Source: Flaccisagitta enflata (Eukaryota). Taken from it: DNA of 64,000 nt. Shown here in pieces: positions 1,479 through 42,697 of the stretch. The position numbers and the translations under genes were made by a program. How positions within the stretch are numbered: the first letter of the stretch is position 1; each line of letters opens with the position of its first letter. The notes beneath the pieces were generated by a model. The model saw nothing but the letters and a program-made list of their open reading frames with translations. It searched no databases and had not been told where the DNA came from. The stretch covers positions 8,742,001 through 8,806,000 of the forward strand of contig OZ231126.1 in assembly GCA_965153355.1 (NCBI GenBank), written 5' to 3'.

Positions 1479-2701
1479 TCATACATGAGAAATCAGCGCA
1501 TGCGTAGAAGAGAAAAGTGTCTTTTAAATCACTTTGTACGCCACTCACCGGGCATGAGTGGGAGGAAATCCACCGGAGGTACATGACGAAGAGGAAGAGG
1601 AGGAGGAAGAGGAAGAAGAGGAGGAGGAGGAGGGAAGGAGAGAATCGTGCATGGAACTGGAAGCAACTGAACTCTGAAGATATTAACGAAAAGATGGGGT
1701 AGAAGTAGTTAAGCCGAAAAAAGAAATGATGACGATGACGATAATGATGATGACGATGACGATGACGATGGCTATGACGACGACGCTAAAAAAAAAACAG
1801 GAGGAACAGGTGAAACAGAAGAAAGTTATATTGATACTGATGAAATCGTGAATCAATCGTGCGATAAAAAAAATGCATTTTATTTTGTCATCATTATATG
1901 ATAATTGATATTATGTAATGAGAGTATGAAATCGATGTTTCAATTAGACGGAGGGACGGACGGACAAAGGCTCTTATAGAGCTGCGTGTCCGCAACTACT
2001 ATCTTGGAAAAAATAAAAGTCCAAGCTGGATAAAAAAATGATTTCATTTCAGATTGGATCAAATATTGATTTTTTTTGTAAGCCCAGTATTTAGAATAAC
2101 CCTTTTGGAGTTTAGAAACCGCTTGTATCGGTAAGGGCATGCCTTGGCAAGGCGTATCAGGCCATTTTATAGCAAAATGCCTCCACTCAATTATTTAAAG
2201 TTTCTGAAAATCAACTTTCCCACTCTTTTTGATGTAGAATAAAAAAAAAAAGAGCTATGGGTCTCTGCTTGGCGGCAATATATAGCCCTGATCAACAGCT
2301 TTTAAACCGTCACCAATTTTTTATCTAAATTTTGCATATCAAAGCAACAGCAAAACAAAACATCATGCATTTCTATTCTATTCAAGTTTTCTGTGCACTT
2401 CCTGAAATCAACATTTTCACATATTCTGATGTAAAATCTAAACGCATAACGCTATGAGTCTCAGCCTGGCACCATTGGCTTGTCCTGTTTAATAGCACCA
2501 TTTTGATCACCAATTTTTATATCAAATCATAGATATCAAAGCTTAAACACAACAAAACGTCCTGGACTTTTATATTTCCAAGAAAGTAAAAGATAATTGT
2601 AAATTTTAGATCATATTCGAGGTCAACACGATATCATTTTATGGCATTGCTCGGTTGTTCTTGTTGTTATGTAATAAGATATTGCGGTCACATCAACTAT
2701 A

Positions 2702-4509: not shown

Positions 4510-5215
4510 AACGCAACCCAAAACAAAGGAAAAACGGCATGTGAGACAAAACCCAATCACAAATCCTAATATAATTGAAATACGGCATGTGAAACAAATG
4601 CCAATATGAAGGAAAGACGGCATGTAAAATTAGAACCAATACAATGGAAAAACGGCATGTAAAACAAATTTTAGCATGAGGAAAAAAGGCGTGTGAAACA
4701 AATCCCAATATGAAGGAAAAACGGCATGTAAAACAAAACTCAATATGAGAGAAAGACAGTTTGTGAAACGAATCTCAATATGAAGGAAAGACGGCATATG
4801 AAACAAAACCTAATAAAAGGGAAGGACAGCAAAAAAGAAACAAATCCCATTTTTTGGAAGAAAAAAAATAAAAGCAGATGTAAGAAGGGTTTATTTTCTG
4901 CAAAACCCATGTAGGGAAAAAACAGCAAGTGAAACAAGACAAACATGAGGTAAAGACAGCAAGAGAAACCAGACCAACAGAAGAATAAGATAGCAAGAAT
5001 AAAACAAAACCGATATAGGGGAAAAATATCAAAAAAAAAAAAACAAAATAGGGGGAAAACAGCAAGTGAAACAACCTATTTAACAGAAGAAAAAACATCA
5101 GAAAAAGAGAAACAAAACAACATAAGGGAAAAACGGCAAAAATGAAACCAAATCTATATAGGGGAAAGATGGCAAAAATAAAACAAAACCAAAATAGGGG
5201 AAACACGGCAAGTAA
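4510..5215 (+). repeat. Degenerate ~40-bp minisatellite
   Basis: Recurrent gaaaaacggcatgt(g/a)aaacaaa. Confidence 0.75.
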
Positions 5216-5879
5216 AAAATAATCTATTCAGCGGAATAAAAAAATAAGAAAATTAAACACCAGGTGACGTTAAAGTGAATTGCTAAACGCAATTCACAAC
5301 ATGGCAGGATACACGGCAAGACAATCGCGGACGGTTGGGCAGGAGCAGTAATGCGAAAACCGCCCGGAATTCAACAAGGTCGGATACACGGCTACCCCAG
5401 TCGCGTTGCGGGTGTGCAGGGGCCCTATTTGAGGTCACTTGATCATTTGGGCAGTAGCTGTAAGGCCAAAGACCACAAAAACCAAAAAAAAAGTAAAGTG
5501 TGACGGACGGACGGTTGGACGGACGGACGGACGGACGGTTGGACGGACGGACGGACGGACGGACGGACGGACGGACGGACGGACGGACGGACGGACGGAC
5601 GGACGGACGGACGGACGGACGGACGGACGGACGGACGGACGGACGGACGGACGGACGGACCGACCGACAAAGCGGGGTGTAGAGTCGCGTAACAGGCGAC
5701 TAAAAAAGAACATATAAGGAAATACTAAAGATTTAAAAAAACATAGAAAAACGAACATATTAGGAAATTCGAAAGAGCACAAAAAACCGTCCAATTGAAC
5801 AATTGACAGACCAATAACTAGCCCAATTCGTAGGTGCAGGCAGGAAAAAAAAGGAACGGTGTTCTGACAATTTTACTGA

Positions 5880-20985: not shown

Positions 20986-21678
20986 CTTTTCTTGGTAAAG
21001 AAAGAGGCAATAAAAAATGACCATAGGGTAGATAGTACCCTATAGGCTAAACTGAATGATCTTGGCTAACAGAACTTTTTGTTGGTCGCTTGTGTACAAA
21101 CTATTCATGTTAGAGAGCAAGTCCCTTTTTGATTGGTTAGTGTAGTACGTCCGGGAACATTTAAAGAGGGTCAGACTATTTGTTTCCTAAATTATATATA
21201 AATTAAGTCACCCCTTAAGTGAATGACTGCGTTATTGGACAGAATACTGAACAAATATTTAAACAAGGCCGGATACACGGCAACCTTAGTTGCATGCGGG
21301 TGGGCAGGAGCAGTGATGTAGAGGGCCATTTTGGCAAAAGCAGCGACGTCAAAATCGCGAAAATTGACAAATGTGATGGACTGATAGACCGATGGACCAA
21401 CGGACGGATTGACAGACGGACAAACAGGCGGACCAAAAAGCGGCAAAAAAAAAAGCGGCATTAGGGCATGAGGGACCCCCTGAGTGATGCACTGATGGAC
21501 GGACCAATGTATACTGTGCACGTAACGTGAAAGCGGGAAAAAAAATTGCAGTCCGTGGATAAAACACAATAGGTAGAGAACTCACTCTGGGTGCGTTTCT
21601 ACTCAAAGCCAGAAACACGTTTTTCAGGTAGGTTTTACAGTTCGCGATTTTCACCACCCTCATCCTGAAAAAATATTA

Positions 21679-21766
21679 GCCTCTTGCAGGGATTGAACCC
21701 ACGCTCAGAAGCAAGAATTTTCATTTGACTGGAAGCTCACGCTTTAACCACCTGCGCCACTGAGAC
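21679..21766 (-). pseudogene. tRNA-like sequence (degenerate)
   Basis: GTCTCAGTGGCGCAGGTGGTTAAAGCG...GTGGGTTCAATCCCTGCAAGAGGC has A-box and B-box, a T-arm, and a partial acceptor stem. A T6 run follows. Confidence 0.55.
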
Positions 21767-21912
21767 AATCACCCAAGTGTTTAAAATTATTTCTGGTAGA
21801 CTTGTTTAATAGAGAGGCAATTGAATAAGATAGCTATTACAGAACTGAACCCCCATAAATTGATCCAAAGTTGTAGAATAAGTCCACCAAAATTCCACAT
21901 GGATGAATGATT

Positions 21913-22005
21913 GCCCTAATGGCGTGATTGGTAAGGGCGTAGACTTCAAATCCAAGAAAGCTGAATCCCCAAGGCAATTTGGGAGAGTTCGTATCTACCT
22001 TGTGC
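21913..22005 (+). pseudogene. tRNA-like sequence (degenerate), loop CTTCAAA
   Basis: GCCCTAATGGCGTGATTGGTAAGGGCGTAGACTTCAAATCCA...GAGTTCGTATC. A-box, imperfect B-box, weak stems. A T7 run follows. Confidence 0.45.
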
Positions 22006-22604
22006 CTCAAATTTTTTTCAGGGAGAGTGAAGTAAAATCGCGATTTGCAAAACCCACGTTAGAAACACGTTTGTGTCTTTGAGTAGAAACACACCCTTGG
22101 TTGGCTTTGATCTAACCCACTGCCATTAAACAGAATGCTGTAAACAAAAACTGGTTAATAAAGTTACAGCCGGCTGTCATGCAAGAAAATTGACAACAAT
22201 CCAACTTTGATAGAAAAGAATGTGACTCGTAGATTATAATTCTAATGAAATTTTGAGAAGTTTGACATATCGCACTTGATATCTTTTATGAGAAATAGTT
22301 TTTTTCAACATTGCACTATAATGAAAGCAGGCATTGATAAAAATTTTCATTGTTGTATAAAAGCATATGTTGTAATATATCAAACTTCACAGAATTTCAT
22401 CAGGATTATGAATCTACAAGTTACATTCTTATCAGTGAAAGTTGGATTTTTTTTCTCTCGATTTTGTAGCATTACAGCCGGCTGTAATTTTAACAAGCAA
22501 TTGTTGTATACAGCATTTTGTTGAGCATCAATTGGTTGGATCAAAGCCAACGAAGTGAGTTCTCTACCTATTTTGTTTTGTCCATAGACTGTATACATAA
22601 TTAC

Positions 22605-40400: not shown

Positions 40401-42697
40401 CGACGTCACTTATACAAAGTCATATAAATAAACGATAGGGGATGAGTTAATCAATCTCCAATGAGCGATTAATTCCGTATAAGTCAAATATTGGTCATGT
40501 TTACATGACTTTTTTCTCCTGTCTATTTATAGCTCGATTTCAAAATGATATCTTAATTGCATTGGAGGGTCAATCGAGAAGAGTCGCAATTGGGCAGATA
40601 TACGGGTCCGGAATTTCTCGTACACATGTGATACTGATGCACCTACACAGTCAGAGGACAAAACAAAATGGGTATATATATCATGCCATTAGCTTTTCTA
40701 TAACTTACTAATAATAAAAAAAATTATGTATGCATTAACTGGTATTTGAAACTACAGCCGGCTGTAATGTTACATGATTAGAGCAATACAACTAATCATT
40801 GCAAACAACATTTTGTTTAATACAGTCAGCCGTAATTTCAGGTTTTGTCCGCTGACTGTACAGCGTGTTTCCACTAATGGCAGCAATCGCGATCTTTCCC
40901 GAGAGAGAGAACGAGCCAGTGAATGGAGCGAGCAAGTGGAGCGAGCGAGTACGTAAATGAAGCAAGCAAGAGGAGCAAGCAAAAATGGGAATGGAGCGAG
41001 CAAGAGGAGCGAGCTGTCAAAGCAGTGTGCCGCAGAACAAGTTGAAGGAGTAAGCGGAGTGAGCGAACAAACGTGGCGAGTGACCAAATAGCCCGTTAGA
41101 AACACTTTTATTTTGTGACTAGAAACGCACGCCCTAGTCAAAGCATACGGTTCACGTGACATAGTCGTAGAGATAGAGAGCCAGAGAACATCCGGAGTAA
41201 GCTTTTCATAACAACGCGACTCTCCTTGCCTCTTAATGTCGAAATACACGAGAAGAAGCCGGAATTATGATCTGCTATCGATTGCCTTAAATATCGCGAA
41301 TCTTGATTTTATCAACACTTTGTTTAAACGCGTTTTTACGGATTCTCTGAACTATTTTCTCCCTTTTTTGGTCGCGTGCACGCGACTATAACCCGCTATG
41401 TTGGTTGGTCGGTCGGTCCATCGGTCCGTCCGTCATCGTTAGCTTTTTGGCATTTAGGGGCGGTTTTTGCCCTGTTGCCCCTGCCCAAATGCTTTGGTCA
41501 GTATTTTTTATCATTGCCCTTGCCCAACTACACGCGACTTCGGTAGCCGTGCATACTGCCTTGTCTTTCTCTTTTTTTTACTTTCACGAAATGAAAAAGA
41601 AAACAATACAACATCGCGTATTGTAATGAATGATCAATCGGGTGTCCGATTGTCATTTCATGGATACAGTGTTACTAATAACATCATTCTCTAAGTCACG
41701 ACTCCATCAGCCACTTTTCGGTCCACCCGTCCGTCCCTCCGTCCCTCCGACCGTCCATCTATCTGTCTGTCCGTCACTTTTGTTATTTTTTGCGCCGCCA
41801 CTTCCGTCAATCTGTTTGAGTAGCATCTTGTCTAAATAACATGTCCCTGTCCACCTGCAGGCGACTATGGTTGCCGTGTATCCGTTCTCGGTTTTTTTTA
41901 TGAATGTAATTTCATTGCTGTTTTTCGTCTTAAACCAATCGCACAGAGTGACGGAAACGATGGCAGCCGCTGAAAGAGAGAATCTGCACGGGTTTTGCTC
42001 AAATTACTAATAAATTTTCGATCTGCAGTGATCTACTGCGTAAATCTTTATGTGGAAAAACCCCATAGCTACGCTTTAAAAAGATTGATGAGTATTTACC
42101 GTCGTTGGTTGTGACCCACTGACGAATAATTGCTTGATGCGTCATTCACTGACACCACATCAGTATGATCCATCTCGACTGAAACATTTTATGATGGCAC
42201 AACTCAAAAAATTTAGATTTAGATTTAGATTTAGATATGTTTAGCCTAAGGAAAACTTTTAGAAAAAAGTCTTATAGAAAGGCCGTCATAGTCATTTAGC
42301 ACAGCACAGCAAAGCAACACAGCACATCCGTGAACTATGGATTTTCATATTTGAAGATAAGCCGTTTTTTGCCCCTGCTTCCCACGATTTTCCAAACCCC
42401 ATTTTCAGAGTTTTCTTCATTTTTTTGCTTTTGCTCCTCAAGCAGTTTTTGATAATCATATTCTGAAAAAAAAGTTTCAAATGTGTAATAGTTTGGCATT
42501 TTATGATGATAAATGCCCTGGAGTAATCTGATTTCCTAACTAGGTAAAGGACCAAGAATCATGCTTTGTAATGCAAACCATTTTGTCACTTTATCATTAA
42601 ACAATTTTTTTTGAAATTGCTTTCATTTCGAAACAGTTTTTTGCTTTTGATATGAGATAGGTCTCAAGTATTCAATTCATTGATGAAGTTAATCGTG

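Follow-up and report, generated by a model that had tools for sequence, protein, structure and literature searches.

Outward-facing Pol III-type promoter cassettes in both arms of a miniature DNA transposon and in its giant relatives in Flaccisagitta enflata

Results

The element in the window and its parts

We analysed a window of 64,000 nucleotides from the genome of Flaccisagitta enflata which harbors, at 21589..22096 (+), a 508-bp MITE (miniature inverted-repeat transposable element). It belongs to a family (family I) with full-length copies at 87-100% identity and exact matches to its ends in the genome, and both of its arms carry an outward-facing tRNA-like unit with the A box, B box and oligo-T run of a gene for RNA polymerase III (Pol III). 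Our comparisons indicate that these units are promoter-only cassettes, derived from the arms of giant relatives in which the boxes are kept and the sequence between them is not.

The terminal inverted repeats (TIRs) are 85 bp long and 79% identical; the left one (21589..21673, +) has a GGG end and closes at the T run of the left unit, and the right one occupies 22013..22096 (+). In size and structure the element is a MITE, being non-coding and within the usual length limit of ~600 bp. The left cassette lies on the minus strand (21679..21766), with its A box at 21747..21759 and its B box at 21689..21700 (intact in 48 and 56 of 62 family copies, respectively), and a terminator-like T6 run at the inner edge of the TIR (21668..21673; T5 or longer in 61/62). 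On the plus strand, the right cassette (21913..22005) has its A box at 21920..21931 (intact in 53/62) and its B box at 21985..21996 (44/62), the latter damaged in this copy, where the invariant A58 is a T; its terminator-like T7 run is at 22012..22018 (T5 or longer in 58/62). The boxes and runs that the original prediction had assigned to both arms are present by sequence. They are no chance occurrence: a scan for paired A and B boxes over both strands of the window (128 kb-strands) returned four matches. The left unit is among these, and the right one, with its damage, escaped the scan. An AT-rich spacer (21767..21912) separates the two back-to-back starts; its left part aligns with the giant arms, and the stretches of ~25 nt that border the units are hypervariable.

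The host of the insertion is a different inverted-repeat element, and the MITE sits within one of its arms (I1 and I5; empty-site comparison). Parts of this host are found to the left of the MITE (21549..21588, +; inverted arm I5) and to its right (22097..22591, +; inverted arms I1, I5, I6 and I7). The target-site duplication (TSD) of 3 bp, at 21586..21588 (+), has decayed (TCT against TTG at 22097-22099) and stands in the target context of the family.

A MITE family that carries its units with it

A genome search with the element gave 511 candidates, 40 of which were scored, and all of these proved full or near-full length at 87-100% identity. The 20-nt end has 252 + 244 exact matches in the genome (496), and its reversed control has none. 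We assembled 62 non-redundant copies, after removing four with common flanks, and 57 of them have both ends intact; among these, a perfect 3-bp TSD is present in 27 and TSDs of 4, 5, 8 or 9 bp in none. Insertions lie in an AC|WNW|GT context, and 16 different TSDs occur among them. With its TIRs, its many copies and its 3-bp TSD, family I thus behaves as the cut-and-paste family spreading paired, divergent A/B-box units that had been proposed.

Searching with the left unit alone gave 258 candidates, and 20 loci were examined. The MITE centre adjoins the unit in all 20 and the left TIR is present in 19; no free-standing unit was seen among them, nor any body or 3′ tail of a short interspersed element (SINE). 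The units are therefore part of the family and not independent SINE insertions into the copy of the window. A 3-bp TSD, many uniform copies and ends in common with larger elements are all features of MITEs. MITEs are described as lacking a Pol III promoter (PMC3879986). Family I departs from this description, since each of its arms contains an A and a B box, and conforms to a MITE on all other counts.

Giant relatives with up to three cassettes per arm

A divergent end (locus L073) led us to seven inverted-end pairs, 15.8-47.4 kb apart, with the 20-nt ends of family I. One of these complete copies of the main clan is at G000:C8:30226455-30259057 (loci L187-L190), and there are six more. Two further elements form a distant clan (G000:C3:80312061-80356571, 44.5 kb, and C1:79306044-79361264, about 55 kb), which brings the complete giants to nine, of 16-55 kb. 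Located on different chromosomes, the main-clan giants have interiors that align colinearly at about 70-85%, and three of the seven have a perfect 3-bp TSD. Over the terminal 79 columns, the two ends of one giant are 93% alike and ends of different giants 88.5%, each end finding its own partner as best match in 5/7. At the DNA level, the inverted homology of five elements spans about 85-120 bp; it reaches about 0.8-1 kb in the two whose ends are of one arm type. All seven nevertheless have a mirrored layout. Repeats found elsewhere fill 36-45% of the giants (five tested).

Each arm typically holds three cassettes. Cassette 1 faces outwards, its B box standing 110-114 nt inside the element and being followed by T6-8; cassette 2, also outward, is at about 340; cassette 3 faces inwards at about 630 and, like cassette 1, has a terminator-like T run. 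Of 18 main-clan arms, 17 contain cassette 1, 17 cassette 2 and 14 cassette 3. Main-clan giant arms and both arms of the MITE, which retains cassette 1 only, share a layout that is fixed relative to the end: the B box is 110-114 nt away from the terminus, and a T run follows 24-28 nt beyond the box. The left half of family I aligns with giant arms up to about position 245 (z 7.7); the right spacer does not. The alignments thus indicate that the family I units derive from the arms of giants with up to three cassettes each, although no direct parent was found among the giants compared, and that family I is a non-autonomous cut-and-paste element which retained the outermost giant cassette in both arms.

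The ends of the distant clan are different, aligning to those of the main clan at only about 72-75%, and it has outward cassettes at the matching place. It also has a MITE family of its own (family II): elements of ~470 bp (e.g., L274:1501-1973), with 87 + 89 end matches and TSDs of TAA, TTA, TAT, ATA and TTT, which align with distant-clan giant arms over 230-250 bp and carry the outer cassette in both arms.

Two arm types differ in the stretch that separates cassette 2 from cassette 3: one has a conserved motif containing GTGGCGC and the other a conserved block of ~45 nt; giants A and C have the same type at both ends. The GTGGCGC-containing motif is reminiscent of a CTCF site. The end pattern has no match in viral contigs and two in metagenome contigs, neither of which continues like the TIR.

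The units are not tRNA genes

The two units had been called homologous to each other and tRNA-like, and both statements stand in part. For the window copies, the global alignment of one unit with the other is not significant (428 of 2000 shuffles reach its score); for the family consensus units, no shuffle out of 2000 reaches the local score, with a likeness that resides mostly in the boxes. ARAGORN, at default settings, calls no tRNA gene in the window and none in 24 arms, and an Rfam search of the window returns no tRNA (RF00005) match at E<=10. We built a covariance model from 20 host tRNAs, against which the left unit of the window scores 20.0 bits (E 0.001) and the right one gives no match; in five other copies, left units score 14.8-24.0 bits and right units 7.6-10.4 bits in three of the five. 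The best score is thus 24 bits, and tRNA likeness holds weakly for the left unit, barely for the right and not at all by Rfam.

Similarity to host tRNAs spans the whole unit, but the stems are gone. Acceptor-stem pairing is 55/133 (41%), 37/119 (31%) and 29/98 (30%) in cassettes 1, 2 and 3, which is chance level according to swap controls (0.42, 0.32 and 0.34), as against 125 of 126 pairs (99%) in 18 host tRNAs. With no cloverleaf and no call by the curated covariance model or ARAGORN, the units are not tRNA genes. Across related arms, the boxes of cassette 1 are anywhere from 43 to 76 nt apart; those of cassettes 2 and 3 have the spacing of ordinary tRNAs, 44-45 nt. The length of about 90 nt had been read as that of a tRNA with a long variable arm; it reflects instead a variable box spacing with no stem kept, and with a spacing this free, neither an intron-containing tRNA nor a long variable arm is supported as its source. 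No single parent tRNA can be assigned to either unit: local alignments to host tRNAs rank Asn and Ser first for the left and Arg(TCT) and Ser for the right, by small margins. A tRNA-Sec origin of the right unit, considered for its TCA triplet, was rejected since host Sec falls outside the top ten alignments. Separately, there are two host tRNA-Sec genes, with a TATA upstream.

What the units do have is the layout of a type 2 Pol III promoter: an A box and a B box at usable spacing and, except in cassette 2 of the giants, a downstream run of T4 or longer. Repeated sub-terminal motifs are common in TIR elements. It could be argued on this ground, and from the fixed distance between B box and element end, that the boxes are look-alikes, i.e., sites bound by the transposase or by a Myb/SANT partner. 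Such a coincidence is very improbable in our estimation, as it would have to produce two different motifs in tRNA order, place them at the tRNA spacing of 44-45 nt (cassettes 2 and 3), add a downstream T run and give the whole unit its likeness to host tRNAs.

In the giants, the boxes are conserved and the sequence between them is not

Mean pairwise identity of cassette 2 across 17 arms is 0.79 in the A box and 0.83 in the B box, against 0.47 between them, 0.40 upstream and 0.32 downstream. For the inter-box part of cassette 1, identity of the two arms of one giant is only 33%, which equals the level between elements. The pattern shows selection on the boxes in giants, and what the cassettes preserve is a promoter and a terminator rather than an RNA.

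These numbers bear directly on the suggestion, made in the original prediction, that the units are a source of small RNAs. Cassettes 1 and 3, with their terminator-like T runs, could yield discrete RNAs, which might be useful as small-RNA source, decoy or guide. However, an inter-box sequence that is only 33% alike within one element disfavors any such product, and so do the absence of stems and a length that varies by more than 30 nt; we regard a functional RNA as improbable, and the suggestion is not supported.

Uneven variation among copies

We compared 12 close pairs of family I copies, chosen on odd alignment columns and counted for differences on even ones; the counts pool terminal and internal tree branches, mixing changes after insertion with changes along lineages. 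The TIRs differ at 12/468 and 11/468 positions (2.5%) and the centre at 38/576 (6.6%). Between the boxes the figures rise to 59/265 (22%) and 40/310 (13%), and in the 25 nt upstream of the units to 35/144 (24%) and 28/156 (18%), i.e., 2-4 times that of the centre. The A boxes differ at 4/70 and 5/81 positions and the B boxes at 4/72 and 13/72, which is 6% in three boxes and 18% in the right B box. Treated in the same way, 29 copies of an unrelated repeat family vary uniformly (chi2/df 1.4 vs 9.2 for family I).

Active tRNA genes have an inner 5′ flank that is about 4-fold more divergent (PMC6130373), and mutation rates of Pol III genes are about 10-fold higher (10.1101/2022.08.20.504670). The excess between and just upstream of the boxes matches both patterns and may be an indirect sign of activity. 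Flanks of host tRNA genes, taken as a positive control for hypermutation, show 33/740 differences upstream and 3/740 downstream, in an ungapped comparison that drifts further out. Two RNA runs, one metatranscriptomic (share 0.05) and one polyA, were compared with the inside of giant C. In X2, all but one of 926 reads (925) match only partially; X1 yields short repeat pieces, and the reads of both runs look foreign to this organism.

The interior of the giants

No protein gene was found in the giants; the conserved parts were tested, and the less conserved right halves could hold a spliced gene. Eight longer open reading frames (ORFs) have only low-complexity Pfam matches, several other long ORFs lying outside the scan. 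Neither a synonymous/non-synonymous test on the conserved islands nor the comparison of giants L and M reveals a coding pattern, and codon periodicity in 390 windows over the first 17 kb of giant C has a best uncorrected p of 0.02. From these tests the conserved islands are, to all appearances, non-coding.

These islands contain candidate RNA structures. One set consists of hairpins on a single strand that share an invariant motif of 13 nt in the loop. They occur at L188:4395-4435, 5070-5110 and 5605-5645 and at homologous places; of the nine giants that have them, seven hold three each and the remaining two hold two each, with stems that differ between copies and clans. They look like a repeated protein-binding RNA motif, and the loop looks K-loop-like. 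The island at L188:4986-5125, 95% identical in six giants and also found in three distant ones, has a predicted multi-stem fold with a loop of variable length and double changes in 3 of 28 pairs. A long conserved hairpin at L188:2735-2885 is shaped like a pre-miRNA; two of its 36 predicted pairs have double changes in six aligned giants, so that covariation is slight in both islands. Rfam names no giant island, the scan of the interiors having produced only microsatellite artefacts, and the conserved-island pattern has no match in public metagenome and viral contigs. A likeness to U1, U3 and K-turn loops is an impression that no tool supports. A G-rich tandem array of 26 bp (30.5 copies) at L189:4-796 has counterparts in other giants.

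As regards a transposase, Harbinger-type PF13359 matches were found in four of 14 candidates (L081-L084), as exons that are apparently split by introns. Beyond the truncated giant J there are ORFs at L216:2828-3508 and 1581-2561 (minus), absent from other giants and with no Pfam match above the cut-off; the former has Walker-like motifs reminiscent of a viral packaging ATPase.

Discussion

A proposed role in keeping the ends open

A cut-and-paste element needs no RNA copy of itself, and the outer cassettes face outwards and end at the terminal domain, which makes the bound machinery, rather than its product, the likely use. We hypothesize that the cassettes are landing pads for TFIIIC and Pol III which keep the element ends open for a transposase supplied in trans, and we give this reading a probability of about one half. 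TFIIIC, TFIIIB and Pol III would bind each cassette and transcribe about 90 nt outwards, as far as the T run at the start of the 78-bp terminal domain, and no transcript would then enter the TIR or the flank. The bound complex would create open chromatin or a barrier beside each terminus and favor excision, and lineages that lost the boxes would cease to spread. Transcription itself may be what scrambles the sequence wherever it is unconstrained, both between the boxes and upstream of them. The mobilizing enzyme could be a PHIS (Harbinger-like) transposase acting in trans, proposed because the ends and the 3-bp TSD fit.

A precedent exists in fission yeast, where the tRNA genes flanking a domain of cen1 are TFIIIC- and Pol III-dependent chromatin barriers in either orientation (PMC2040200); the cassettes would most likely work alike. 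The cen1 barriers are real tRNA genes at a fixed host locus, whereas the units described here are promoter-only and sit at the ends of mobile elements. By this analogy, the insulator or TFIIIC-site role first suggested for the units would fit.

Several observations weigh against this hypothesis. All six motifs are intact in only 28 of 62 family I copies, and conservation of the boxes above the centre is absent inside the family; selection on the boxes is thus shown for giants and not for the MITE. Cassette 2 of the giant arms has no T run. Pairs from duplicated insertions show the inner excess in one case out of four (16/340 vs 19/2518 in the flanks, p 5.5e-7; p 1.0, 0.25 and 0.30 in the others), and seven same-site copies of family II differ at 17/300 inner, 9/176 TIR and 9/300 flank positions. 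There is no strand bias in the family I pairs (sense-strand C>T 0.082 vs G>A 0.071), the mutational excess reported for human Pol III genes does not extend to SINEs (10.1101/2022.08.20.504670), and copies sampled by similarity are biased toward conserved ends. On the side of the enzyme, 134 short frames from conserved blocks of giant C have no Pfam match above the curated cut-off, and the family ends are absent from 50-90 kb around the four PF13359 loci, which leaves no transposase tied to the giants.

Boxes that diverge at the rate of the centre in the MITE, along with a parent tRNA that cannot be assigned, speak for neutral relics: tRNA pseudogenes or SINE heads in the ancestral arm which have been decaying since, the boxes looking conserved because they are shielded by bound factors or because fast mutation of a copy ends with the loss of a box. 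Helenus, thought to have arisen by insertion of a SINE into a long terminal repeat (LTR), would be a precedent (PMC10886601). Yet boxes, spacing and T run are kept in nearly all giant arms next to nearly random sequence, the layout persists in two clans with so little likeness between their ends, and none of the 20 loci has a free-standing unit; decay is in our judgment quite unlikely.

TFIIIC-bound sites cluster in the nucleus. The cassettes could accordingly gather ends that are 16-55 kb apart, with the MITEs merely inheriting the outer one. Three cassettes per giant arm against one in the MITEs, and a box conservation that is clear in the former and not above the centre in the latter, are what such pairing of ends has in its favor. 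On the other hand, cassette 1 survives in both arms of two MITE families that belong to different clans and are only ~0.5 kb long, a size at which pairing needs no aid; this counts against the idea, even if that retention could also stem from deletions sparing the first ~245 bp. We consider end pairing unlikely, while granting it some weight beside the landing-pad hypothesis.

Relation to known systems

The closest analogs are the retroelements Helenus, Cassandra and Ajax (TRIMp3; Kojima 2024, PMC10886601), which also have small-RNA-derived sequence in both terminal repeats. Helenus shares with our cassettes a conservation restricted to boxes A and B, with no working tRNA. These are LTR retroelements with direct repeats, a primer-binding site and polypurine tract (PBS/PPT) and TSDs of 4-5 bp, and their promoter is thought to make the transposition RNA (PMC10886601). 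Family I has the tRNA-derived, box-only sequence in both repeats and neither direct LTRs nor a 4-5 bp TSD; its arms are inverted, its TSD is 3 bp and its outer cassettes face outwards and end within the element, the giants having three per arm. In the main text of that paper, the phrase 'DNA transposon' is absent. The box-only conservation described for Helenus (PMC10886601) might suggest that our elements too move through a Pol III-made RNA, as SINEs do. This route is hardly credible and largely excluded: outward cassettes that end within the element do not copy it, and inverted ends, a 3-bp TSD, no tail and no free units are found. Compared with tRNA-derived SINEs (SINE2), the A and B boxes likewise come from a tRNA ancestor, but the family I units have no body or tail, are never free in the 20 loci, stand back to back and are moved by DNA ends.

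Family I shares G-rich termini that start with G, as well as a 3-bp TSD, with the MITEs of the PHIS superfamily (PIF/Harbinger, Pangu and NuwaI/II; Han et al. 2015, PMC4482050). PHIS groups have specific targets (TWA, ANT, CWG and C|TNA|G), and the family I context resembles C|TNA|G of NuwaII and ANT of Pangu (PMC4482050). The autonomous PHIS consensus is about 3.5-4.5 kb long, with a DDE and a second ORF (PMC4482050), whereas the relatives found here are of 16-55 kb with no ORF signal. Ends and TSD fit PHIS, nearest NuwaII or Pangu, with no enzyme by which to file the family there. Zator is another group with a 3-bp TSD.

In the literature accessible in full text, including PMC3845634 and PMC2836005, no Pol III cassettes built into the arms of a DNA transposon were described; Repbase, Dfam and subscription journals lay outside this scope. 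Pol III promoters in mobile elements (SINEs, Cassandra, Helenus) have been explained by the need for an RNA intermediate, and a cut-and-paste element needs none. Since the cassettes also face away from the element, their long conservation would imply a use in chromatin or in end pairing. The system therefore lends itself to a clean test of whether DNA transposition uses the Pol III machinery as a host factor. With every jump, paired TFIIIC sites, which are candidate insulators, would also be spread through the genome; judged from their ends, the two MITE families have roughly 250 and 90 copies.

The giants, for their part, are long elements of an unexplained class, united by conserved, apparently non-coding RNA motifs. 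It is tempting to see in them a new kind of protein-free DNA transposon of 16-55 kb whose cassette-array ends harness TFIIIC and Pol III to open or pair the ends, with a conserved non-coding RNA cargo (the multi-stem domain, the long hairpin and the three hairpins that share an invariant loop) and the MITEs as its minimal form. We advance this wider proposal tentatively and would sooner doubt it than assert it.

Other features of the genome and the window

Host tRNA genes form tandem arrays at G000:C4:75.73-76.14 Mb, with a unit of ~5.3 kb that contains many isotypes, and at C7:68.63-68.65 Mb, with a ~730-bp unit of tRNA-Arg(TCT). Within the window itself, 37 bp at 41094-41130 are 82% identical to the right end of the MITE, perhaps the end of a distant relative or a chance match.
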